A stretch of DNA of 64,000 bases from Lysobacterales bacterium (GCA_022844165.1 JALHMH010000008.1:64001-128000); one strand, 5' to 3'; counted from the stretch's first letter, positions 9,565-64,000 are shown. Notes: generated by a model from the sequence alone, not told the origin. Numbers and translations are program-made.

Positions 9565-12017
9565 ACGCGCGCGCCCAGCGCTGCGGCAACCCGCAGCAGA
9601 TCGGCAAACACACCGGCAGCAGTGACATCCGGGCCTGCACCTGGTCCGCGAACGATCAACGGGTTGCGATGGTAGCGTTCAGTGGTAAAACTGACGATAT
9701 TGTCCGTGAGCGCGATATGCGCGAACGGATGGTCTGTCGGCAGTGCTCGCAACTGCACCGCTGCGGCGCCATCCGCCTCCAGCAGCGCACAGTAGCGCAG
9801 CACTTGTCCGCGTTCTTTGGCCTCGCGAAATCGCGTCGCCATCGCGGCATCAAAACTCGGAAGTCCGGCGAGAAACGCTGCGCTGTCACCGTCGAGTAAA
9901 GCGTCCGGAACCAGACTCTCGACCGTCACCTGTGAGAGTTCCAGTGCGACACCCATTTCGCGCGCCAGGATGACCAGCTTGCGCGCAACATCAAGGCCGG
10001 ACAAATCGTCGCGCGGATCGGGCTCGGTATAGCCTGCTTGTCTGGCCTCCAGCACCAGTGCCGAAAATGGCTGACTGCCATCGAAACGGTTGAACAAATA
10101 CGCCAGGGTGCCGGAGAAGATTCCCTCGATGCGTTCGATGCGATCGCCGGTGTCGATCAAGTCGCGCAATGTGCCGATCACTGGCAGGCCGGCGCCGACC
10201 GTGGCCTCGTAGCGCCAGCGAGCACTTTGGCGCGCCGCATCCTGGATAGCGCGATAGCGCGCAAGCGGCCCTGCGCCGGCTTGTTTGTTGGGCGTCAGGA
10301 CGTGGATGCCGGCTGCCAACCACTTGGCGTAGTGTTCGGCGACGTCCGAACTGGCCGAACAATCGATGATCATCGCGTGCGGCAGATGCTCGGCGCGCAC
10401 ATGCCGGGCAAGGGCATCGAGATCGCACGACAGGTCGCTGCGTTCGAGCGCCGCTTTCCAGTCGCTCAGATCCAGCGTCAACTCGTCCAGCACCATGCGT
10501 TTGCTGGCTGAAATCGCGCGCACGCGAAGGTCGATATTGTTGTCGCGCAACAGGCGCGGTTGGGCCATCCGGATTTGTGCAAGAAGGGCTTGCCCGACAT
10601 GCCCCGGGCCAATGACCCCAATCGACAGGGTTTGAGCCGAAAGATAAAAGCCGGCGTGCACGGCGCGCAGAGCGCGGGTCGCTTCGCCTTCCGCCAATGC
10701 AACCGAAATATTGCGCTCTGACGAACCTTGGGCAATCGCGCGCACATTGACTTTGGCGCGCCCTAAAGCGTTGAACACCTGCGCGCAGATGCCCGGCGTG
10801 CCTGCCATGCCGTCGCCGACCACGGCAAGGACGCTGATGCCGCGTTCGCTGACGACCCGTTGAATGAGGCCTAGCGTGATCTCCCGGCCAAAGGCGTCGG
10901 CCAGTACTTCGCGCGCCCGATCGGCGTCGCCGGCATGGATGACGCAACAGATCGAATGTTCGCTGGAGCCCTGCGAAATCATGGTCACCGACACCTTAGC
11001 CGCGCGTAACGCTGCGAACACGCGTTCGGCGGTGCCCGGCACGCCAATCATGCCAGCGCCTTCGATGGTGATCAGTGCGAGGCCGCCGATCGTTGTGATG
11101 CCCTTGATCGGCGGTTCGCGCCCCCCGTCGTGATCGATGCGCGTACCGGGGTGGCTCGCGTTAAAGGTGTTGCGGATATAAACCGGTATTGACTTGGCGG
11201 TTGCCGGTGCCATCGTTTGTGGGTGGATGACTTTGGCACCGAAATACGCGAGTTCGAACGCCTCGTCGTAGGAAACGTGGTCGAGCACTACAGCCTCGGG
11301 CACCCGCCTGGGATCGGCCGACAGGACACCATCGACATCGGTCCAGATGTGGATCTCGGCAGCATCGAAGAGCGCGCCAAAAATGCTTGCCGAGTAGTCG
11401 CTGCCGTTGCGGCCTAACGTAGTGATTCGATCGTTCTGATGGCGCCGCGCAACAAAGCCGGTAATAACATAGCGCTTCGATGGATGGTCATGCCGGAATC
11501 GCGCCAGCAATTTCTCGCTCGGCAACCAGTCGACCCCAACGTGCAACTCGTTCGGTGTCACTCTCAACACATCGCGCGCATCGAGAAAAACGCCGGGTTG
11601 ATCGAGTTCGTGAAAGTGTGCCGCGAGCAGCATCGCCGACCAGACTTCTCCGAGGCCCTGCACAATTTCGACCATTTCTTCAGGCGCAGAACCAATCAGC
11701 TCCATCGTCCGCAGCAGATGCGCAAGATCCTCGAAACCGGTCCGATAGGCGCTCAGGATCTGGCCGGGGTCGGAAAGCAGTTCGCGCGCGGCGGTGTTGT
11801 GTTTGTTGTGCAGCGCGGTGAGTTTTTCCACCCAAATCGAATTCTTGGCACTGGCCAACTGCGTGAGCTCGATGAGCAGATCGGTCACGCCTTGCATCGC
11901 CGAAACGACAACGACCTGCTCAGTGTCGCCTCGAGCGATCATCAATTGCGCAACGTGTCGGTAGCGCTCGGCGCTGGCGACACTGCTGCCGCCGAACTTG
12001 TGGGCAATAAGGGGCAT
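9561..12017 (-). CDS. thrA: Bifunctional aspartokinase / homoserine dehydrogenase
   Basis: [18 protein letters not shown], two ACT domains, [10 protein letters not shown] and [10 protein letters not shown]. Start placed at MPLIAHKF (12017). Confidence 0.95.
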
Positions 12018-12254
12018 GGGTTTCGATTGGTTGGATAGTGATGGTTGGTGGTTGGTGGCAAAGCTGCACGCAACCGCTGGGCCGAAAACTAGCAGTTTTC
12101 CAGAACGCAATGACTCGATCGCGATAATTGCAAGAATCCCGATGTCACGACCACACATCCCCGTGCACACTGAGCGCTCTAGAATCATCGACCACCAATC
12201 GATTCCGTGCGGTGGCGCTATTGACAGATGGGAAAGCCGCGTCGCCAAAGGGTG

Positions 12255-12457
12255 TTTTGCACAGCGCGCCAATCGGCCGAACTTTTGTTGCAGGATTGTC
12301 AAGGAGCTGTCTTGCCGAAACTGCAAACGTTTGATTTATAAGCATTTTACCCAGTCGGCAAGGAACTGCCCAAGAGGCGAAAAAGGGCGTCCCGACGCGG
12401 TTTTTGCGGTCGTCAAGAGGCATGCTCCACAGGGTTATCCACAGGCAGTGTGGATAA
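12255..12457. promoter_or_regulatory. DnaA-box cluster with IHF site (DARS/datA-like)
   Basis: TTATCCACA 12435-12443 and inverted TGTGGATAA 12449-12457 (5-bp spacer), degenerate TGCTCCACA 12423-12431, TTTTGCACA 12255-12263. IHF consensus AATCAAacgtTTG on the minus strand at 12324-12336. Confidence 0.7.
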
Positions 12458-12545
12458 GGAGGAAAGCGCCTTTGTTGGCAACCACTTAGCTCGAATTGCT
12501 GAAGCAGGCGTCAAGAATGGGCTGCAAGTGACGCATAAGGTCAGA

Positions 12546-14681
12546 TCACGAGAAATCGAGCGGGTCAACATCAATCGAATAGCGAAGTTTAATCTTCGAT
12601 GCGCGCATCCGTGCAACGCGATCCCTGAGAGCCGAATGCAGCAGCGCTCGTTGCGTAGACAACACAATCAACTGGTATCGATATCGATCCTGACGTTTCC
12701 TGTTGGGGGCTGGCAGTGGTCCCACGATTTCGACGCCGGCCATTGGCGGATGAACCAACTCGCCAAGAAAGGACTCGGCAACCTGAGCATCGCGATGTTC
12801 GGCGCGCAGTACGGCAGCATGTTGAAGCGGCGGCAATTCTGCTTGTGCGCGTTCCGCCAGCGCGGCTTGTGCGTATGCGCCGTAGCCTTGGGCAATCAGC
12901 ATGGTCAGCATCGGGTGTTCGGGCAGGTGCGATTGCAGCAGTACCTCGCCAGCGCGCGAAGCGCGTCCGGCGCGCCCAGCGACCTGCACCAGCAGCTGCG
13001 CCAAATGTTCGGCGGCGCGAAAATCCGGGCTCATCAAGTGTTCGTCGACGCCGGCGATTACCACCAGCGACACGTCCGGCAAGTGGTGGCCCTTGGCCAA
13101 CATCTGTGTGCCGACGATGAGCATCGGCTGGCCTCTCAGTACCGTCGCGATCGCATCCTCGAATGCATTCTTTCGCGCTGTCGTGTCGCGATCGAGTCGC
13201 AGCAATGGTGTTTGCGGAAAGTGTTCCGCAAGCGCGACTTCCAGCCGCTCGGTGCCGCTGCCCTGCGGCATCAGCGCCAGACCGTGGCACTGTGGACAGG
13301 ATCGCGGTGCGCGGATCTGATAACCGCAGGTATGGCAGCGCAACACGCCTTCCCCGCGGTGCCACGTCAGGGCGTGTTCGCATGCTTCGCAGTAACCGTG
13401 CCAGCCGCAATCGTGGCACATCATCGCTGGCGCATAACCGCGGCGATTCTTGAAAACCAGCACTTGTCCGCCGGCATCGAGATGGCGGCGAATATGCACA
13501 AGCGACTCGGGCACGAGGCCATCGCGCAGCGATCGCTGGCGCAGATCGATGGTGGTCCATGTGGGTGGCTTGGCGGAGCCGATTCGCACCGGCAGTTCGA
13601 GGCGCCTGAACTTTCCCGAAGCGACGTTGTGCAGCGATTCGAACGACGGCGTTGCGCTGCCGAGCAGCACCGGCGCACTCGCAGCCTGCGCGCGCAGCAA
13701 GGCGACATCGCGCGCGTGATAGCGAATGCCATCCTGCTGTTTGAACGAGGCATCATGTTCTTCATCGACAACGATCAGACCCAGCCGCGGTAGGGGCGTC
13801 CAAACGGCAGAGCGGGTGCCAACCACAACATCGACCTCGCCCCGTGCAGCGGCGGCATAGGCGGCCGCACGTTCGCCGTCGCCGAGGCTCGAATGCAACG
13901 CCGCAACTCGTGCCGGTAAACGCTCCCGCACACGCGCCAGCAGTTGCGGCGTCAATCCAATTTCCGGCACCAGCAACAAGCCTTGTTGGCCGGCGCACAC
14001 GATATCGGCCAGGCGCTGCAAATAAACCTCGGTCTTGCCGCTGCCGGTGACACCATCGAGCAGACAAACATCAAAACCAAGTGAGGCCCGCAATGTGGTC
14101 AGCGCGCTGTTTTGCGCAATGCTCAGCGGCGGCGCTGGCGCGAGGATCGGCGGCGGCGAATATGGCGAGACCTCGGTGACACTGACGAGGCGCTTGTCGC
14201 TCCAGCGGCGCACGATGGCTCGCCAGGGACCATGGATCGTGGCCAACTCTGCGCCGAATGCCGGCCCCGCCAGGAGGCGTTGCCAGAGCGCTTTGGCGTG
14301 CGCGCCGCGCATAGGGCCCGGCGCAGTGCGATCAATAAGCGCGATCAGCGTCTCGCGCTGCACGTCGATGGCTTCGGACCGCTTCAGTCCCGAGGGGAGT
14401 GCCGTTGCGATCAACTCACCCAGCGGCGCATGGTAATAGCGCGCCGCTCGCTCCAAGGTCTGCCACAAGATGGGATCGAACAGCGGTTCGCGATCGAGCA
14501 CTTCGGCGATCGATTTTAAGTCGCCATCGTGCTCCTTGCCGATGGCCGCGACCACACCAATCACTTCGCGTTTGCCGAATGGCACGCGCACGCGACAGCC
14601 GACTGCTGGCGGGTCGCCGTCATAGCGATAATCGAACAGCCGGTCGAGCGGCACGGGAATAGCGATTTGCAAAATTGACAT
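12546..14681 (-). CDS. priA: Primosomal protein N' (PriA helicase)
   Basis: GVTGSGKTEVY, DEEHD, Cys-rich zinc region and C-terminal IDVDPL. Confidence 0.97.
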   Translation of the reverse strand: MSILQIAIPVPLDRLFDYRYDGDPPAVGCRVRVPFGKREVIGVVAAIGKEHDGDLKSIAEVLDREPLFDPILWQTLERAARYYHAPLGELIATALPSGLKRSEAIDVQRETLIALIDRTAPGPMRGAHAKALWQRLLAGPAFGAELATIHGPWRAIVRRWSDKRLVSVTEVSPYSPPPILAPAPPLSIAQNSALTTLRASLGFDVCLLDGVTGSGKTEVYLQRLADIVCAGQQGLLLVPEIGLTPQLLARVRERLPARVAALHSSLGDGERAAAYAAAARGEVDVVVGTRSAVWTPLPRLGLIVVDEEHDASFKQQDGIRYHARDVALLRAQAASAPVLLGSATPSFESLHNVASGKFRRLELPVRIGSAKPPTWTTIDLRQRSLRDGLVPESLVHIRRHLDAGGQVLVFKNRRGYAPAMMCHDCGWHGYCEACEHALTWHRGEGVLRCHTCGYQIRAPRSCPQCHGLALMPQGSGTERLEVALAEHFPQTPLLRLDRDTTARKNAFEDAIATVLRGQPMLIVGTQMLAKGHHLPDVSLVVIAGVDEHLMSPDFRAAEHLAQLLVQVAGRAGRASRAGEVLLQSHLPEHPMLTMLIAQGYGAYAQAALAERAQAELPPLQHAAVLRAEHRDAQVAESFLGELVHPPMAGVEIVGPLPAPNRKRQDRYRYQLIVLSTQRALLHSALRDRVARMRASKIKLRYSIDVDPLDFS

Positions 14682-56788: not shown

Positions 56789-57111
56789 GCCGCAACTATC
56801 GGCGATTCGGCGTTTCGCTGCGAGCAGGGGTGACTTTCGTGCGGTGAACCGGTACACCGTCGCGTTCAGTTGGTGGGTTCTTGCGGCGATCGGAGTGAGT
56901 GGCACGCGTCCCGTTTCAGGACGCACCGCACGCGAACAGGCATCGATGGTTTTGGGCTGCAAACCCTTGAGTTTGAGGTGCTTCAGGTGGCACTGATACA
57001 GCGCACAAAGCGCTCACGATCTTGCTCGCAGGACAAGCCTGTCAAGGTAGTCATTCCTCACGGTTGAAGGCACAATCACTCCCCCGGTCCGCGAAGGAAT
57101 GCCCGTGAAGG

Positions 57112-57167
57112 TTACGCCGCAATCCTCATCCCGAAGACCACTTCTCCGCGTAGCGGCTTCGTTCAAC
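57112..57167 (+). repeat. Left copy of a perfect inverted repeat of at least 56 bp bracketing the cassette region
   Basis: TTACGCCGCAATCCTCATCCCGAAGACCACTTCTCCGCGTAGCGGCTTCGTTCAAC is the exact reverse complement of 63945-64000. Confidence 0.95.
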
Positions 57168-57181
57168 TTTGCGTGTTAGAG

Positions 57182-57625
57182 ATGAAGAGGATGCGCGTAC
57201 TGTGCAGTGACAACTTCTACCACGACGGCCGCGGTCCAACGTTGGTCCGTGTTCACTTGGCGGATGGGTCCGCGCACATCGAGGCGATCGACTATCAGCT
57301 ACCCGATTCGGACGGCGGTCCGGAATTCAGTCGGCATCTGCTGTTCAGTCGCGCACAGGTGTACATGTTCACGCCCGAAGAGGTGGAGAACTACATGACT
57401 GCGCAGTCAGACTGGAGCAAGTCAGATCGTGGCGCGCTCGTTTCACTCGGCAAAAGCAGCTGGTTGTCATCGTTCAGTCAGCGGCACCTCGAGCGCTGTG
57501 AACACTATCGGGCGATGTTCTATGACGAGTTCTTGGACATTATCTGCGAGGGAATCACCAGCGAGCCCGGGTACTTCATCTCTAACAAAACCATGCAGCC
57601 GACGGGCCAGGGCGCGCGCGGCTGA
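57182..57625 (+). CDS. Hypothetical protein in gene cassette A
   Basis: ATG directly follows core site GTTAGAG (57175-57181); the ORF reads through the complementary CTCTAAC into the attC. Confidence 0.75.
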   Translation: MKRMRVLCSDNFYHDGRGPTLVRVHLADGSAHIEAIDYQLPDSDGGPEFSRHLLFSRAQVYMFTPEEVENYMTAQSDWSKSDRGALVSLGKSSWLSSFSQRHLERCEHYRAMFYDEFLDIICEGITSEPGYFISNKTMQPTGQGARG

Positions 57626-57640
57626 TGGTTGTCGTTGGGC
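57580..57640 (+). other. attC site (61 bp)
   Basis: R'' CTCTAAC, L'' ATGCAGC, L' GCTGAT, R' GTTGGGC; R'' is complementary to the cassette's own GTTAGAG. Confidence 0.85.
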
Positions 57641-57692
57641 CCCGCATGCTAGTTCTCGGTAACTCGTCCCATGCTTATTAGGAGTGAATTTG

Positions 57693-57967
57693 AGTGAACG
57701 TCTCGGAAAGCGCTCGCTTAGCTATTATGGCCTCTTTGGAAAATGCTCCATCAGGCTCCTTGCCTGTCTTGGTGGTCGGCTATCGCTATCACGAAGACCA
57801 ACGCATTCCTTTTGTGGAAATTGAGTTTTATCCGCCGAAGAGCATTAGCGAGGATTCCTGCAGGTGATGGATTGACCTTTTATGAGGTACTCCCTGATTC
57901 CAGCGAATTGATTCGTGATAGAACGCTTCTGTTTCAGGACGGCAGTTTTCTTCTTTCCACGCAGTAA
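57693..57967 (+). pseudogene. Probably frameshifted hypothetical gene in cassette B
   Basis: AGGAG RBS then GTG; MNVSESARLAIMASLE...FYPPKSISEDSCR stops near 57865 and a second frame continues GDGLTFYEVLPDSSELIRDRTLLFQDGSF; AT-rich. Confidence 0.45.
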
Positions 57968-58006
57968 GAAGAAAATTTGGTTGAATGGCTGGCAGATTGA
58001 AAATGA

Positions 58007-58089
58007 ACTTAACGCTTGTTGGCAACCTGCCAAAGGTGCGAAGGCGACAGTACCTGCCTCCACGGTCAGGGTTAGCTCGAACGTTGGGC
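58007..58089 (+). other. Degenerate attC site
   Basis: ACTTAAC...GCAACCTG...CAGGGTTAGCTCGAAC-GTTGGGC; R'' does not match the upstream core. Confidence 0.6.
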
Positions 58090-58337
58090 TGCGGATTGAG
58101 CGTGCGGCTTGATCGCGCTTTGGTCACATCGCGCAGCGCGTCACCAGCGGCTTATTGCGCTCATCCAGTGGGCGACTTCGCCGCAGCATTCCAGACAACA
58201 GCGTCGCGCCATGCCGCGACCCACGGGACACGTCGCTCTTGTGGGTCGCGCTACAGCGCGACGCTCTTTTCTGTTCCGGTCGGGCAGCGTTTGCCAAACT
58301 GTCGACGTCAGGTGCCTAAGTGCACCAAAACACCGTA

Positions 58338-58421
58338 GCCCAACAGCAAGCTCAATCGGACCGACGCTCTGCTGGGTTGCTTCGACCAATCATCCCTAAG
58401 CGGCGGCCGCTTAGCTCGAAC
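58338..58421 (+). other. attC site truncated just before R'
   Basis: GCCCAAC (complement of GTTGGGC at 58083), CTCAATC...GCTTAG-CTCGAAC, then no GTTRRRY. Confidence 0.75.
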
Positions 58422-58582
58422 TGGACGACTTCTCGAATCGACTACGATTCGGGTCTCTTTACCGTTCATGCTACCGCGCAGTCCACCATGGCCTACGCGG
58501 CGCGACAGTCGGGGGTGCGAGCCAGCTCGGTGGAGGTCCGGTTAGGGGAAATCTGGGCCACCCTTGCGGATAGTCGATGCTC

Positions 58583-58849
58583 CTAACCAGCGTGGAGTTC
58601 CTCCCGGATGATCCGCCTCAGCGTGCGCTCAAGCGTCCCTTCACTCTCTGCGATGTGCCCACGAAGCACCTCATTGATAAGGGTCTGGTAGTTGCCGCCG
58701 CCCACGACGCGACCGCGAAACCACGCCAAAACATCTGCATCCAGGCGGATTGTGATGCGTTCTTTCCCCAGGCTCTCGGCCTGCAAGCGCGCAAGCGCTG
58801 GGACATCCTTGATGGACCTGGCTCCCGAAAAATCGTATTCGTCGCGCAT
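58583..58849 (-). CDS. brnA: BrnA family antitoxin
   Basis: MRDEYDFS, KERITIRLDADVLAWFR and NYQTLINEVLR. Confidence 0.9.
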   Translation of the reverse strand: MRDEYDFSGARSIKDVPALARLQAESLGKERITIRLDADVLAWFRGRVVGGGNYQTLINEVLRGHIAESEGTLERTLRRIIREELHAG

Positions 58850-58851
58850 AT

Positions 58852-59130
58852 TTAGCTCACCAACTCTCGATAGTGACGCGCTTCGCCAGGGCTGGCACTG
58901 CGCGCCGAAATGATTCGGACTACGTCTTCATCGCGCTCGGTCCAGACCACGAGCAGAACCGACCCGATGAATCCGCAACCGAGTGTCACGAACCGAGCTT
59001 CTTCTTCTGCATCAGGGTCTTCCCGCGTGATGCTCAGCGGATCAAGCAACGCTCCGATGGCGTCGGCAAAGTCAACATCGTGACGCTTGATGTTGGCAGC
59101 ACGCTTTGATTCATCCCACTCGAAGTTCAT
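58852..59130 (-). CDS. brnT: BrnT family toxin (RNase)
   Basis: FEWDESKRAANIKRHDVDFADA and VRIISARSA. Confidence 0.92.
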   Translation of the reverse strand: MNFEWDESKRAANIKRHDVDFADAIGALLDPLSITREDPDAEEEARFVTLGCGFIGSVLLVVWTERDEDVVRIISARSASPGEARHYRELVS

Positions 59131-59136
59131 GCCGCC

Positions 59137-59165
59137 AGTGTATGCACATCAAGCATACGACGCAA
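59137..59165 (-). promoter_or_regulatory. Leaderless sigma-70 promoter and palindromic operator of brnTA
   Basis: TTGCGT-N17-TACACT-N6-ATG; GTATGC-N7-GCATAC palindrome at 59140-59158. Confidence 0.75.
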
Positions 59166-59171
59166 GGGCGC

Positions 59172-60214
59172 GAAGCGCTGATCGCGCAGTATGGATCGCA
59201 ATAGCAAGCGCATCAGCGGCGTGCGATGAGCGCCATTCTTACCTGCCGCAGCATACTCGGCTGCCTGGATTGGCGCTGCCCGGACTGCGCGGAGCGGCGC
59301 GAAACGCCGCGATCCTGCGGCCATCGCAATTGCCCGCAGTGTCAGAACCACACGACCACCGAATGGCTGGAGCGACAACGCGAGAAGCTGCTGCCCGTCG
59401 ACTATTTCATGGTCACGTTTACGCTCCCTGCGGGGCTGCGAGCGCTGGCGCAAGCGCAGCCAAAGACGATGTACTCAGCCTTGTTCTGCGCCGCCTCCGA
59501 GACCCTCAAAGGCTTCGGCGAGCGCAAACTGCACGCCGAACTCGGCCAGTGCGCGGTGCTGCACACGCACAACCGTCGACTCGATCTGCACCCGCACGTG
59601 CACATCGTCGTACCCGGCGGCGGCATCGACCGCAAACGCAAACAGTGGCGCAAGATTCAAGGCAGGTACTTGTTCAACACCTTCGCCCTCGCGCGCGTAT
59701 TCCGCGCCAAAATGCTGCGCGCGCTTGAGCGTGCGGGCGTGTCGATACCGATCGGCTTGCCACCGAAGTGGGTGGTCGATTGCCGCAACGTCGGCCGCGG
59801 CGAACCGGCGCTTCGTTTCGTTTGCCTTGGCAAACGAACGAATCAAAGACAGCTGTCGCGTTAACTCTATCGCGGCGTCATTCGCGAGCGCGATCTCGTG
59901 TCTTACGATGCGCAATCCGGCACTGTGACCTTCCGCTATATCGACGCCAGCACACAGCGGCCGGCGTATGCGAACTGCCCATCGCACAGTTCCTCTGGCA
60001 TGTGCTGCAACACGTGTTGCCCATCGGTTTGCGTCGCGTGCGCGACGATGGGTTCCTGCACGGCAAAGCCAAAGCGCGACTGACGCTCGTGCAGCTGATC
60101 CTGCGCGTGCTCATCGCGCAGCGCGAACAAAAACCCCGGCCGCCGCTATGCTGTCCGAAGTGCAAAACGCCGATGCGCTTGATTGGACCAATCTTGCGCA
60201 GGCCGGATGGATAA
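59172..60214 (+). pseudogene. IS91-family (HUH/Y2) transposase, inactivated
   Basis: Zinc domain SCGHRNCPQCQ, YFMVTFTLP, HUH motif HPHVH and QHVLP...RRVRDDGFL. 5' truncated; stops at 59202 and 59862; insertion at 59817-59852; frameshift near 59970. Confidence 0.9.
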
Positions 60215-60322
60215 ACCACCGATTGCGGATCGGCTTTTCGGTAAGCGTCCGACGCCGCACATCTAGATTCGGAGTTTTGTCTTCGCCAATCCTGTTCTCA
60301 ACGCGACGTTGAGGCTAGATCG

Positions 60323-60511
60323 ATGCGAGGTGAGCGGTTGGGGGCGAGCGCGTGGTTTGCGCGGGTTTGGTTCTTTCAGCGTAGCGGCCTGAGTGCCCGA
60401 GCGTACTGCGCGGCGCAGGGCATTTCGTACTCGACGTTCATGGGGTGGCGCTCGCGGCTGGTGCGCGAGCTGGCGGGTGGCCGTTTGCCGTTTCGGCGCT
60501 TCGTGCGATGA
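60323..60511 (+). CDS. tnpA: IS66 accessory protein TnpA
   Basis: FQRSGLSARAYCAAQGISYSTFMGWR HTH motif. Confidence 0.8.
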   Translation: MRGERLGASAWFARVWFFQRSGLSARAYCAAQGISYSTFMGWRSRLVRELAGGRLPFRRFVR

Positions 60512-60837
60512 CACCGACGCTGCCGTTGTTCGTGTGCGCTGAGGCGGTGGATTTTCGTCTCGGGATCGATGGTCTGGCGCTGCGGGTGCAGGCGAGTCTG
60601 GGTCCGCAGCGGGCGTTGAATGCTGCGCATGTGTTTTTCAATCGGGGGCGGGACAAGGTCAAGGTGCTGTGGTACGACCGGCACGGCTGGTGGTTGATGT
60701 ACAAGCGCCTGGAGCGCGGTCGATTTGCCTCAATACCGAGCGGCGCGCTGAGCGATGTTGAGCTGCGGTTGGTGCTCGAAGGCGTGGATTTATCGGTGCG
60801 TCGATTTGCCCCGGTACGCGGGGTGCGAGTGGCATGA
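60508..60837 (+). CDS. tnpB: IS66 accessory protein TnpB
   Basis: VDFRLGIDGL, VFFNRGRDKVKVLWYD and KRLERGRF. Confidence 0.92.
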   Translation: MTPTLPLFVCAEAVDFRLGIDGLALRVQASLGPQRALNAAHVFFNRGRDKVKVLWYDRHGWWLMYKRLERGRFASIPSGALSDVELRLVLEGVDLSVRRFAPVRGVRVA

Positions 60838-60911
60838 GAAGAGTATGGCTTTTTGCCGGCAATATGCTGATTTTGCTGGCTTTTTGCGTGGCGATTCGTA
60901 GTGTTTCTGAC

Positions 60912-62444
60912 ATGCAGATTGCCACCGACGATGCCCCAGTTCCTGCCGAAGTCCACCGCGCTGTGGTGGCCAAGCTTGAGGCGCTGACGATCGCATTCGA
61001 GAAACTTCAATTGCAGTTCCAAACGCTGCTCCGCCAGCGCTTCGGATCGAGCAGCGAGAACATCAAACAAATCCCACTGTTCGGCAGCATGGATGTCGAA
61101 GTTATCGAACAGGACAAGGTGTCGACGCCCGCGCCGCCGGCGAAGAAGGTCGTGGCGCGCGAGCGCGTGCTGTTGCCCAAAGACTTGCCAGTGATACGCG
61201 AAGTGATCGATGTGCCGGAGGCCGACAAGCTCGCGGCCGACGGCACGCCGAAGACGCAGATCGGCGAAGAGATCACGGTGAAGCTGGGCTATCGCCCGGC
61301 GGCATTCTTCAAGCGCGAGATCGTGCGGCCGAAGTACGCCGATCCGGCGGTGCCGGAGGCGGGCGTGACGATCGCTGCGCTGCCGCCGCAACTGCTCGAT
61401 GGTTCGTTTCTTGACGCCACCTTAGGCGCTCACCTGCTGGTCTCGAAATATGGCGATCACCTGCCGCTGTATCGCCTGGAAGACATCTACGCACGCGGCG
61501 GCGTGGCGCTGTCGCGCAGCACCTTGTGCGATTGGGTGATCGTGCTGACGGATCGCTGGCTGCGGCCGCTGGCGCAGGCGCTGAAGGTGCAACTGCTGCA
61601 GCAGAACGTGATCCATGTCGATGAGACGCCGCTGCCGCTGCAGCGCGATGGTCGGGTGGTCAAAGCGCGGCAATGGACCTACACCAGCCGCGATCCGAAG
61701 ATCACGCTGTACGAGTTCACCGAGGACAAGGAAGGCGTGCACGTTCGCGAGTTCTTGCAAGGCTGGCGCGGGTATCTGCAAGCCGATGCCGCGAGCAATT
61801 ACGATGCGCTATATCGCACGCGGCCTGAGGTGGTCGAAGTCGGATGCTGGGCGCATGCGCGGCGCAAGTTCTTCGATGTCGCAGCGGCAGCGGATAAGAA
61901 CGCCAAGCCGGGCGAGAAGCCGCAGCGCATCCTCGCGCATGATGCGCTGGAGATGATCGGCGAGCTGTTCGCCATCGAACGCGCGGCCACTGAGGCGGGC
62001 GACGATCACAAACAGCGGCGAGCGCGGCGACGATCGCAGGCGCAACCTGTCCTCGACAAGATCAAAGCCTGGTGCGAAGACAAACTTGCAGACGTCCTGC
62101 CGAAATCACCGACGGCGGGTGCGCTCAGCTATCTGCTCAAGCGCTGGGACGTGTTCACGCGTTACTTAGAAGACGGTCGCATCGCCATCGACAACAACGC
62201 CGCCGAGCGCGCATTGCGGCCGGTGACGATCGGTCGCAAGAACTGGCTATTCGCCGGTAGCAACCGCGGCGGCGACGCGTGCGCCATCGCCATGAGTTTG
62301 ATCGCCACCGCCAAGGCACATGGCCACGATCCGCTCGCGTATCTCACCGATGTGCTGGCGCGATTGCCGACGCTGAAGGCCAAAGACATCGACAGCTTGC
62401 TGCCGATGAATTGGACAGCGCCAAAACAACCAACGACTGCCTGA
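60912..62444 (+). CDS. tnpC: IS66 DDE transposase TnpC
   Basis: FGSSSE, KYGDHLPLYR, HVDETP, GCWAHARRKF and IDNNAAERALR...GRKNWLFAGS. Confidence 0.95.
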   Translation: MQIATDDAPVPAEVHRAVVAKLEALTIAFEKLQLQFQTLLRQRFGSSSENIKQIPLFGSMDVEVIEQDKVSTPAPPAKKVVARERVLLPKDLPVIREVIDVPEADKLAADGTPKTQIGEEITVKLGYRPAAFFKREIVRPKYADPAVPEAGVTIAALPPQLLDGSFLDATLGAHLLVSKYGDHLPLYRLEDIYARGGVALSRSTLCDWVIVLTDRWLRPLAQALKVQLLQQNVIHVDETPLPLQRDGRVVKARQWTYTSRDPKITLYEFTEDKEGVHVREFLQGWRGYLQADAASNYDALYRTRPEVVEVGCWAHARRKFFDVAAAADKNAKPGEKPQRILAHDALEMIGELFAIERAATEAGDDHKQRRARRRSQAQPVLDKIKAWCEDKLADVLPKSPTAGALSYLLKRWDVFTRYLEDGRIAIDNNAAERALRPVTIGRKNWLFAGSNRGGDACAIAMSLIATAKAHGHDPLAYLTDVLARLPTLKAKDIDSLLPMNWTAPKQPTTA

Positions 62445-62761
62445 TCCGGCGATGTTTGGCTAGATGTGCGGCGTCGGACGGATACGCTTTTCGCAACTCC
62501 AACAAGCCCACCGATCCGCAGCCCCGCGCACTGTTTGACGACAGCATCGAACACAGCGCCGGCCACTCATTTTGCAAAGGAGATTACGCAACGACTCGAC
62601 GATTCAACCGCATCGCAAACGCACCGCTCAGCGCAGAGCACGGCTAAACTCGGCCAACGTTTATCGATGCGCCCACAGCCAATCGGCAACGCGCCAGACA
62701 ACAGCCAAAGCGCGAAGATCTTTCCCCTATAAAGATGACACCAACCTGCGAGACCGGGCTT

Positions 62762-62814
62762 GTTCAACCCGGGATAGATCGCGGCTTCGCGCGATCTATC
62801 CCTATTCGTTAGGC
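62762..62814. other. attC-like hairpin at the 3' end of the IS91-like element (53 bp)
   Basis: GTTCAAC-cc-GGGATAGATCGCG-gcttcg-CGCGATCTATCCC-tattc-GTTAGGC. Confidence 0.75.
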
Positions 62815-63210
62815 CGCACTCGTGGCAGTGGAAGGCTGGAAGTAGATGTAGCGCCAGACTACCTGCCAGCCAGATGAGCCAAGTTCGAAGAAGAGTTGGT
62901 CTGTTCCTTCCTCCGACTTGGGTCCGCTCTCGCGCTGGTAGGTCATTCTCCAGTTAAACGTGTAGACAGCGCTTGTTTCCCAAGTCCTGAGCACGTGACT
63001 CGACTCTGAGTACTCGAGCACAGCAGCGTTGCTTGCGAACTCTCGATAGCTCTCGGCGCACTTCTCCCCACCAGCGGCAAACTCGACAAACCCTGGGCCA
63101 ACTATGACCGCCTTTTGGTGAAAGCAGTCCTCCAGTCCGTCAAACTGCTTCGTCTTCCATGCGGCATCGATGATTCCAATTACCTTCCGTATAGCGGTCT
63201 CGTCTGGCAT
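62809..63210 (-). CDS. NTF2-like / DUF4440 protein in a gene cassette
   Basis: SnoaL-like pattern (AAWKTKQFDGLEDCFH...GWQVVWR); GGAGG RBS; stop lies in GCCTAAC; cassette ends are 12-bp inverted (GTTAGGCCGCAC). Confidence 0.8.
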   Translation of the reverse strand: MPDETAIRKVIGIIDAAWKTKQFDGLEDCFHQKAVIVGPGFVEFAAGGEKCAESYREFASNAAVLEYSESSHVLRTWETSAVYTFNWRMTYQRESGPKSEEGTDQLFFELGSSGWQVVWRYIYFQPSTATSAA

Positions 63211-63283
63211 CTTGGTCCTCCACGGGTTCAAGGCGCTTCGCCCGGATTCTGCTGCAGAAGAGGGGCAGTGCGGTTCCTGTGCG

Positions 63284-63418
63284 GCCTAACGTTGCGATAA
63301 GCGGTAGTTTTTCTGTTGCGCTTTTGAGTTACACTCAATGAGCACCGCGAATTTAAAAGCGCAACAGAAAAACTATCCAGTGGAGCGAAGCGGAACGAGC
63401 TTGATCGCCTTGTTAGCG
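63284..63418 (-). other. Long attC site (135 bp)
   Basis: Minus strand: CGCTAAC, ATCAAGC...GCTTAT, GTTAGGC; perfect internal 21-bp stem 63305-63325 / 63355-63375. Confidence 0.88.
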
Positions 63419-63419
63419 A

Positions 63420-63854
63420 TTACCAAAATTTCCACCATGATTTTTTCGCGTTGCCACTTCCAAAGCCTTCAGGGTGCTTCACGCCAGAATCACCGATTAT
63501 TTCCCAAGACGCTTTTGAGTCAACATACATATGATGAGCCACCTTTAGCTTTTCTTGGCCAACAGTAATGGTGCCCACAGGAATGTACATATTGCTTTCG
63601 TCATTCTCTCCAGGAAGCGCTGACCCACAAACACTGCAAAAGTATGAATGCCAATCATGCTTGGGCTTTGACCAGTAAGTTATCTTGTCTTGGCCTCTTA
63701 TCCAAGTGAACTTGTCGCGCCCGACTATCGACACAGCGATTCCACCGCTACCGGTCGATTTGCGACAGATCGAACAATGGCAGATGAACACGTCCGAAAT
63801 TTCGGTATCTACTTTGTACGCAACAGCTCCGCAGTTACATTCTCCCTCAATCAC
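63420..63854 (-). CDS. GFA / CENP-V family protein in a gene cassette
   Basis: GECNCG, CHCSICRK and FCSVCGS zinc motifs; GAGGAG RBS; AT-rich; flanked by GTTAGCG and CGCTAAC. Confidence 0.9.
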   Translation of the reverse strand: MIEGECNCGAVAYKVDTEISDVFICHCSICRKSTGSGGIAVSIVGRDKFTWIRGQDKITYWSKPKHDWHSYFCSVCGSALPGENDESNMYIPVGTITVGQEKLKVAHHMYVDSKASWEIIGDSGVKHPEGFGSGNAKKSWWKFW

Positions 63855-63878
63855 GTTTTGACTCCTCTTCGTGTGCCC

Positions 63879-63951
63879 CGCTAACGCTGGAGCTAAGCGG
63901 CCACATCAATCGCGAAGCGATTGATTGGTCCGCTTGAGCGAACTGTTGAAC
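63879..63951 (-). other. attC site (73 bp) whose R'' box is the end of the right inverted repeat
   Basis: Minus strand: GTTCAAC, CTCAAGC...ATCAATCGC-ttc-GCGATTGAT...GCTTAG, GTTAGCG. Confidence 0.88.
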
Positions 63952-64000
63952 GAAGCCGCTACGCGGAGAAGTGGTCTTCGGGATGAGGATTGCGGCGTAA
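63945..64000 (-). repeat. Right copy of the inverted repeat (reaches the window edge)
   Basis: Exact reverse complement of 57112-57167. Confidence 0.95.

Follow-up and report, generated by a model that had tools for sequence, protein, structure and literature searches.

IS91 inserts beside GTTC or CTTG at its origin end and leaves no target duplication. Insertion sequences (IS) of the IS91 family with an added recombinase gene are catalogued in ISfinder under names such as ISAzo26. One such element, ISShvi3, carries an extra tyrosine-recombinase gene upstream of its Y2 transposase gene (PMC9229058, in part). Transposition of IS91 proceeds by a rolling circle (PMC7923331, in part). The attC sites of integrons can be invaded by IS1111 elements, as they are by class C-attC group II introns, and these introns usually lie opposite to the cassettes (PMC9229058, in part). 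Integron integrases work on the bottom strand of both attC partners (PMC2727003; PMC3458562; both in part). Here we describe a cassette array at the end of a 64,000-nucleotide stretch of DNA from a Lysobacterales bacterium (GCA_022844165.1, JALHMH010000008.1:64001-128000), which is called the window below. A first-pass annotation, made from the sequence alone, had seen there two convergent cassette arrays bracketed by a perfect inverted repeat. The repeat very probably consists of two oppositely oriented left termini (left ends, LE) of an IS91-family insertion sequence of ~2.4 kb.

The whole window corresponds to C8:64001-128000, where C8 is a contig of a 59-contig assembly, and the repeat can be traced past the window edge. 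Window positions 57112-57167 are the exact reverse complement of 63945-64000 (56/56 bases, spacing 6777 nt), and such a perfect inverted repeat is far beyond chance. Whole-contig alignment of window 56922-57167 with C8:127945-128191 extends the match to ~247 bp at 96% identity. Contig C8 runs 9.8 kb beyond the right copy, which is therefore internal to the contig and no contig-end artefact; the perfect repeat at the window edge and the reality of its right copy both stand. By BLAST the genome has six copies of the repeat: C8 and C42 carry two each, C13 and C55 one each. Three of the six touch contig ends: the C13 contig begins inside the recombinase gene described below, and one C42 copy and the C55 copy are cut. 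All six share a sharp terminus at ...GGCTTCGTTCAAC, where similarity is lost at the same base, and all six end at GTTCAAC. Read outward from the cassettes, the repeat consists of a leader of ~115 nt and the start of a gene (MTGLSDEQDRARFDALYQCHLKHLKLKGLQPKTIEAY...). This outward-pointing tyrosine-recombinase gene start inside the repeat had been overlooked by the first-pass annotation. A DNA search of 59 genomes, the source genome and 58 relatives, left the repeat unmatched outside its own genome, and since none of the 58 relative genomes holds a match there is no conservation in kin at the DNA level.

The repeat contains LE and the first ~45 codons of the tyrosine-recombinase gene, int, with a Phage_int_SAM_4 domain. 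The complete element encodes an Xer/IntI-like tyrosine recombinase (Int) and then a Y2 (HUH) transposase. Three decayed copies, here called a, b and c, lie within the cassette array of ~10 kb. The transposase of copy b matches PF14319 (Zn_Tnp_IS91, 3.9e-22) and PF04986 (Y2_Tnp, 1.5e-18), and the gene of copy c starts with Phage_int_SAM_4 and, after frameshifts and a deletion, continues as the C-terminal part of Y2_Tnp (Pfam). The 95-aa N-terminus of Int was used as a query against one genome per species. This yielded 321 relatives, from which 80 loci were kept for analysis. The LE motif is present at 74 of the 80 loci, in 76 copies in total. Many of the 80 loci are contigs of ~2.4 kb, and 11 contigs start precisely at the first base of the element, with GTTGGACGAAGCCGCTACGCGGAG. 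The right end (RE) was found in 30 of 31 candidate full copies. The span is 2399-2528 bp in 29 of these 30, and the remaining copy, with an internal deletion, measures 2087 bp. Relatives usually have Int at element positions 112-1023 and the transposase at 1020-2130. The transposase of a full relative scores 356 bits on NF033538 (cut-off 125), which places it in the IS91 family. A full-length Int has 303 aa and the domains Phage_integrase and SAM_4. Among NCBIfam models it matches that of integron integrases, TIGR02249, best, though its 162 bits fall below the cut-off of 265 bits and XerA, XerC and XerD come close behind. Aligned with the host IntI, it lacks the IntI-specific insertion of ~25 aa. 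A run of 8 A within int (CTAAAAAAAAG; element positions ~800-815, e.g., L016:795-815) is conserved in 56 of the 70 copies examined (loci L015-L094). The catalytic C-terminal part of Int (HSLRHSYATHL...Y) lies in the -1 frame and the plain open reading frame (ORF) stops at 246 aa, so the 303-aa Int would require a -1 ribosomal shift or transcriptional slippage. At one locus, L035, int has 9 A and is read through in a single frame.

The element has the build of a gene cassette, with its start at G|TTG(G/A)AC and its limits at G|TT, where the limits of cassettes also lie. The RE reads GTCCAAC-AAACG-GTTCAGATCGTGG-loop-CACGATCTAAC-CTTATTC-G|TT. Similarity between the right ends of different copies stops after this GTT, and the next bases vary (AGGC, GGGC, AGCC and others). 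The plan of the RE is that of an attC, R''-spacer-L''-loop-L'-spacer-R', with a 5-nt spacer and, beyond the third pair of the 5' arm, one extra base. When 30 right ends are aligned, 99.2% of helix 2, formed by L'' and L', is paired, and both sides have changed in 5 of its 12 pairs. This covariation was reached by none of 500 shuffles, and slid registers drop to 21-39% paired. The first 7 bases of LE exactly complement the R'' box of the RE (GTTGGAC/GTCCAAC) in 30/30 full copies. In the window and in a copy on an Escherichia coli plasmid both boxes have changed together, giving the variant pair GTTGAAC/GTTCAAC. Because LE complements the R'' box of the RE, an element joined head to tail would carry a complete attC. 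The element thus possesses the 3' attC (R''-L''-L'-R') and the G|TT boundaries of a gene cassette.

At most scorable junctions the element is found at the R'' (1L) box of a resident attC, in the orientation opposite to the resident cassettes. Five of the six genomic copies have LE, a 5-nt spacer, the L''-L'-R' part of an attC and then a cassette gene, with the GTTCAAC of the element in the R'' position. Of these five hybrid sites, three pass a strict architecture test and two were judged by eye. What adjoins LE is an attC remainder (L''-L'-R') and no captured-cassette start; hence the element entered a cassette site, and not the reverse. The first-pass annotation was right that the repeat is portable and is regularly followed by attC-type sequence and cassettes.

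The relatives give a similar picture. The 100 nt adjoining LE mostly contain an attC-like hairpin. The 70 nt adjoining LE have a median folding energy of -14.6 kcal/mol versus -10.6 and -9.0 kcal/mol for random windows (Mann-Whitney p = 6e-10 and 1e-14). An arm-alignment test is passed by 37 of 61 LE junctions versus 20 of 618 control GYYYAAC sites. The extra base of these 37 lies in the array top-strand arm at 33, in the other arm at 1, and the arms are equal at 3. Insertion in the manner of a cassette, in the same orientation as the array and at R' or attI, was therefore not what was found: 33 junctions are inverted, 1 is co-oriented and 3 are undecided, and the junction lies at R''. The strict architecture test detects a site in the inverted sense at 19/61 junctions, in the opposite sense at 0/61 and at 1/454 controls. 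The flanks contain further strict attC sites, 24 of them in the orientation opposite to the element and 8 in the same one. On the RE side, 30/30 flanks start with TT and RRRY-like bases, which are the remainder of the resident R'' box on the other strand. An exact GTTRRRY follows the RE in 14/30 copies, and there is no GTTC or CTTG there. Two other attC detectors were discarded: a loose one gave 2.2 hits per kb genome-wide and a fold-based one passed 10 of 61 junctions. The strict architecture and arm-alignment tests were used; in a MAFFT alignment the attC arms fell out of register. Complementarity between the RE-side core and the upstream R box was also scored. Shuffled flank pairings scored equally, and the comparison is uninformative because attC R boxes are all alike. 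At window 57161-57180 and at L050:5867-5896 the end of the element lies 5-7 nt from a GTTRRRY/RYYYAAC box without attC arms. These short armless junctions may be a different kind of insertion site or the result of later deletions.

A class 1 integron on an E. coli IncC plasmid, NZ_LT985243.1, harbours one relative at 10950-13288 (locus L110), with an Int of 54% identity and an IS91-family transposase. Its position is between aadA1 and qacEdelta1, and aadA2, cmlA1, aadA1, qacEdelta1 and sul1 all lie on the other strand. A single nucleotide separates the RE of this copy (...TTATTTG|TTAGAC) from the stop codon of aadA1. Before its LE, GTTGAAC, comes what is left of the aadA1 attC, read backwards: ATCTAAC-GCTTGA-GTTAAGCC...GGCTTGAAC-GAATT. 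The aadA1 attC is thus split at its R'' box, as the other junctions would lead one to expect, and the junctions have no target duplication. At the DNA level NZ_LT985243.1 is the sole carrier among 72,556 plasmids, and the right end of its element is 95% identical over 252 bp to a plasmid of Shewanella sp. ANA-3. On a Photobacterium damselae plasmid (L111, NZ_CP065043.1:80953-89807) the neighbours of a relative are the reverse transcriptase gene of a group II intron and a RelE/ParE toxin-antitoxin pair, as is typical of cassette arrays.

The array of the window continues past its edge. Beyond copy c follow a barstar-like cassette, an attC (C8:129886-129976) and a DUF6959 cassette, all on the minus strand. 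Next comes ...GTCGTCTATTTTTA-GTTAGGT, an attI-like sequence at C8:130312-130342, whose homologue on contig C27 separates the intact intI from the first cassette. The minus-strand block is thus an ordinary array with an attI at its start. It is no orphan, as this start lies ~2.3 kb beyond the window, though no intI stands beside it: tblastn detected no IntI similarity in C8:129500-133500, which covers the site and ~3 kb beyond (best E 0.71). Copy a and the small plus-strand block (57168-58090) alone point in the opposite direction. Taken together, the attC sites at 57580-57640, 63284-63418, 63879-63951 and C8:129886-129976 and the attI-like site identify the array as an integron or a cluster of attC sites lacking integron integrase (CALIN). 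No integron integrase gene lies within the window, as the first-pass annotation had stated, and the integrase that it had supposed in trans exists. An intact intI at C27:827-1771 scores 465 bits, above the TIGR02249 cut-off, and the first cassette on C27 is followed at the contig start by an element RE, again inverted. The attI-like region occurs five times in the genome (C27:676-830, C32:2481-2596, C3:25062-25116, C9:650-698 and C8:130312-130342), with an intact intI only at C27, decayed intI starts at C32, C3 and C9, and none at C8. One genome thus holds several integron platforms, mostly without an integrase.

These data bear on the role that the first-pass annotation had given to the repeat, that of a portable attI-like entry site which captured cassettes with the help of an integrase in trans. 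Its terminal 7-mer fits RYYYAAC and, reverse-complemented, GTTRRRY. Attachment-site sequence of attC type and a cassette gene follow five of the six copies, an intact intI is present elsewhere in the genome, and the hybrid sites, which retain the full attC architecture, may still recombine. However, the sequence is the conserved terminus of a two-gene element of 2.4 kb at 74/80 loci, and it is followed by the L''-L'-R' remainder of a resident attC and not by a first cassette beginning at G|TT. On the plasmid the element interrupts the attC of aadA1, a cassette that is part of the class 1 array. The real attI of the genome is a different sequence, present in five copies, and the recombinase that adjoins the repeat is no integron integrase (162 bits versus 265, IntI insertion missing). 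We regard such an entry site as very improbable.

How the element might reach its target can be proposed by analogy. The Y2 transposase would make a single-stranded circular copy, as in IS91 rolling-circle transposition, and the RE-LE junction of this circle would fold as an attC. Int of the element, or possibly the host IntI, would then exchange the bottom strand of the element attC with the folded top strand of a resident attC. Such a single strand exchange, with which the sequences at the junctions agree, would cut the element attC on the bottom strand at GTCCAA|C and the resident attC on the top strand at RYYYAA|C, and would join the two. Replication would fix the insertion and leave the element back to front. 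Canonical IntI uses bottom strands, and the IntI reaction would therefore give the other orientation. The chances are about even that the element's own Int is the enzyme of insertion, and the HUH enzyme alone may choose the target. Our tentative overall reading, at a probability of roughly 0.4, is that this IS91 lineage, widespread in Beta- and Gammaproteobacteria, is a self-mobilising pseudo-cassette. It would travel as a single-stranded circle made by its HUH enzyme, and its own IntI-like recombinase without the IntI insertion would pair the element attC with the top strand of a resident attC, which integron integrases avoid. It would colonise, split, invert and perhaps seed arrays, and a clinical class 1 integron is already among those it has entered.

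The host could instead provide the enzyme. In that case IntI would on rare occasions use the top strand of an attC and so make inverted insertions, which would persist because an inverted cassette is hard to excise, and Int would have another role. The ends of the element do resemble an ordinary attC, the 5' arm having its usual extra base, and intI is present in the source genome and, above the curated cut-off, in 5/5 other element-bearing genomes tested. This link between IntI and the element is one of co-occurrence. Six element copies in those five genomes include two at 2-11 kb from intI, one at ~8 kb from a partial intI and three far away. Against a host enzyme, int is conserved and linked in the surveyed relatives, and the best NCBIfam match of Int is the integron-integrase model itself, below its cut-off. 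The many copies per genome and the element-sized, high-coverage contigs suggest frequent transposition and no rare accidents, and three copies (L088, L073 and L027) lie far from any intI. Insertion by host IntI thus seems rather unlikely.

Several points count against the main explanation of the repeat, by the ends of an attC-homing insertion sequence. As many as 24 of the 61 LE junctions fail the attC test, and several are clearly outside any attC (e.g., L045, L071, L081 and L090), which means that the target preference is strong, yet not absolute. The attC detector is home-made and does not use a standard covariance model. Copy a, alone among the six genomic copies, has its GTTCAAC 7 nt from a GTTRRRY core (GTTAGAG, 57174-57180) without L'' and L' arms. 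The RE that matches the GTTGAAC of the repeat is that of copy b; copy c has an RE of the other type and is therefore a chimera. By tblastn, no intact copy of the element is present in the assembly, the smallest contigs of which have at least 13 kb, and the anatomy is taken from relatives with 62-78% identity in the Int N-terminus. We infer the enzyme of insertion and reconstruct the history of inversion, and no circular junction was observed.

Within the array each copy keeps to the rule of lying inverted to its neighbouring cassettes: copy a, on the minus strand, lies beside plus-strand cassettes, and copies b and c, on the plus strand, lie beside minus-strand cassettes. Most likely, both the small plus-strand block and the opposition of copies a and c go back to a single inversion, the simplest history, with one breakpoint inside an element near int codon 45 and the other near the kinase gene that borders the array. 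On this view copy a may have been the left part of copy b, from which it was separated while the piece between them was lost. Two independent LE stumps, at window 56922 and at C42:35577, give way to unrelated DNA at distances of 246 and 236 bp from the terminus. The second stump, ending near the same position, hints at a fragile point in int, and the coinciding ends may mark a preferred break or recombination point there.

Inverted repeats of such a length can support RecA-dependent inversion. It is accordingly conceivable that the 6.8 kb between the copies flips by homologous recombination across the 247-bp repeats, which are 96% identical. The length of the repeats suits such an inversion, and either order leaves one cassette block co-oriented with the attI-proximal cassettes. 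The sequencing runs are represented by metagenome contigs only, which hold 0.05-0.39 of the sampled words, and four runs were compared with the region. Among the matches listed, these four runs (short contigs, 2-5x, 0.16-0.39 of the sampled words) contain no strand-changing joint, and they are too thin to bear on inversion. We consider a flipping segment unlikely. At position 63941 a loose metagenome end lacks the element and has GTTAGGC after the same attC arms. As this type of attC recurs in the genome, the end is no proof of an empty site.

A further possibility is that the element carried the whole cassette block here as a mobilised unit, by one-ended (read-through) transposition in the style of IS91. 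IS91 and ISCR elements are described to mobilise the DNA beside one end when termination fails (PMC7923331, in part). At the left the block is bounded by a truncated element right beside a housekeeping-type kinase gene, and four of the five attI-like sequences in the genome are without an intact intI. The right boundary, in contrast, is an attI-like site and no element end. The target-site signature of this subgroup is not known, and the closest relative genome is too diverged to reveal an empty site. Synteny with this nearest genome gave a kinase ortholog at 67% identity, but the right-hand neighbour has dozens of paralogs and hence no such site is defined. Such a one-ended origin is quite unlikely.

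The block can now be followed from left to right. Copy a (56922..57167, minus strand) is a truncated remnant with LE and the first ~45 int codons, delimited by the alignment of the six copies and tblastn of the int N-terminus. Its int has TTG in place of the ATG start, has lost 1 nt and stops at 56922. The outermost 56 nt of copy a are 57112-57167, and copy a adjoins the histidine kinase gene that had been named as the left neighbour (Pfam). The junction TTTGCGT-GTTAGAG (57168..57181, plus strand) was read from the sequence and the alignment. Cassette 1 (57173..57640, plus strand) contains a 150-aa ORF without a Pfam family, and the strict architecture test finds its attC at 57580-57640 on the plus strand (R'' CTCTAAC, R' GTTGGGC). 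Cassette 2 (57641..58090, plus strand) has short ORFs without a family in the ORF list and Pfam. Its attC, at ~58007-58090 and ending in GTTGGGC, is weak and tentative, and the fold gave no single clean hairpin. Of the three plus-strand cores in the first-pass annotation, GTTAGAG (57174-57180) and the GTTGGGC ending at 57640, which belongs to a strict attC, are thus upheld, and the GTTGGGC ending at ~58090 is a weak candidate. The plus-strand and minus-strand blocks meet in a non-coding zone (58091..58582), in which searches for inverted repeats and folds gave a strong palindrome at 58193-58279 and, on each strand, attC-like fragments, but no parse into clean sites.

The minus-strand side of the zone begins with a type II toxin-antitoxin pair (58583..59130), the BrnA antitoxin (58583-58849, minus strand; Pfam PF14384, 1.4e-13) and the BrnT toxin (58852-59130, minus strand; Pfam PF04365, 3.7e-23). 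The first part of copy b (59178..60240, plus strand) is an IS91-type Y2 transposase gene, recognised by Zn_Tnp_IS91 and Y2_Tnp in Pfam and by tblastn with a full relative. It misses ~14-22 codons at the 5' end, has a frameshift near 59860, and has no int or LE upstream. An IS66-family element (60241..62485, plus strand) lies inside this gene. Its ends are inverted repeats of 26 bp, it encodes an IS66 Orf2-like TnpB and a DDE transposase (Pfam PF05717 and PF03050), and its 8-bp target duplication, GCTTTTCG, is found at 60233-60240 and 62486-62493. The toxin-antitoxin pair and the transposase gene split by the IS66-family element had been overlooked by the first-pass annotation. The last part of copy b (62486..62814, plus strand) contains the RE and was aligned with the RE of 29 relatives. 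This attC-like RE (62762-62814) consists of GTTCAAC, a perfect 13-bp hairpin and TATTC-G|TTAGGC.

The next gene is the DUF4440/SnoaL-like cassette gene (62809..63231, minus strand; Pfam), and the R'' box of its attC, GCCTAAC (minus strand, 62808-62814), directly adjoins the RE of copy b. It is followed by the long attC (~135 nt; 63284..63418, minus strand) of a cassette of the glutathione-dependent formaldehyde-activating enzyme (GFA) family. Inverted repeat and fold give this site R'' CGCTAAC, 26-bp arms within 63305-63375 and R' GTTAGGC. The GFA gene itself lies at 63420..63854 (minus strand; Pfam PF04828, 6.4e-23). Both minus-strand genes agree with the first-pass annotation, in which the DUF4440/SnoaL-like one was called NTF2-like. 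The hybrid attC (63879..63951, minus strand; strict architecture test and alignment) uses the GTTCAAC of the element as R'', followed by the 5-nt spacer and the resident L'', L' and R' (GTTAGCG). The LE of copy c, the right arm of the repeat, occupies 63945..64000 (plus strand), and the element runs on to C8:129503 by alignment and Pfam. Copy c is degenerate: a repeat of ~160 bp lies inside int, a deletion fuses int to the C-terminal part of the transposase, and the RE is at C8:129449-129503. The ~160-bp repeat (C8:128377-128539, or L007:578-740) has >70 other matches in the genome at 75-98% identity and looks like a high-copy miniature element.

The locus, which appeared to be an integrase-less array with two entries, is thereby recast as a decayed integron platform riddled with insertion sequences. 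The element breaks short-read assemblies of chromosomal integrons (three of the six copies touch contig ends) and creates hybrid attC sites and inverted repeats inside arrays. It is also a natural test of strand choice in attC recombination. The relative between aadA1 and qacEdelta1 on an IncC plasmid means that the lineage can reach mobile resistance integrons. The open literature searched, with ISfinder, TnPedia, subscription journals and supplements outside its scope, gave no account of an attC-like RE, an R'' target or a fixed inverted orientation, and an earlier description of attC-homing IS91 features may exist. IS1111-attC elements and group IIC-attC introns are not known to carry an attC of their own. 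Should the IS91 lineage with the recombinase indeed home, as a mimic of cassettes, to the R'' box of attC, it would be a third kind of attC-targeting parasite and the only one of the three with its own attC.

The element shares features with several known systems. Like the described IS91 elements with a recombinase, it has Zn_Tnp_IS91 and Y2_Tnp domains after a phage-integrase-type gene in ~2.4 kb. With regard to the insertion rule of IS91, the bases after the RE are of TTRRRY type in 30/30 copies, and no duplication is seen at the junctions in the aadA1 attC. With the gene cassettes of integrons it has in common the G|TT boundaries, a 3' attC, the 5-nt spacer, the extra base after 3 bp and the R''/R' complementarity across the junction. 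Unlike these cassettes, it carries two mobility genes of its own and is inverted at R'', whereas cassettes are co-oriented at R', and some of its copies lie outside attC. IS1111-attC elements (IS110 family) and group IIC-attC introns also home to attC in a fixed orientation, but their enzymes, a DDE-type transposase or a reverse transcriptase with a ribozyme, are unrelated to those of the element. Like attI, the repeat has a GTTRRRY-type core at its boundary and adjoins a divergently transcribed tyrosine-recombinase gene. Unlike attI, it is multi-copy and the end of a transposable element, and its recombinase is without the hallmark insertion of IntI. The element is neither an attI, nor an IntI, nor a regular cassette.

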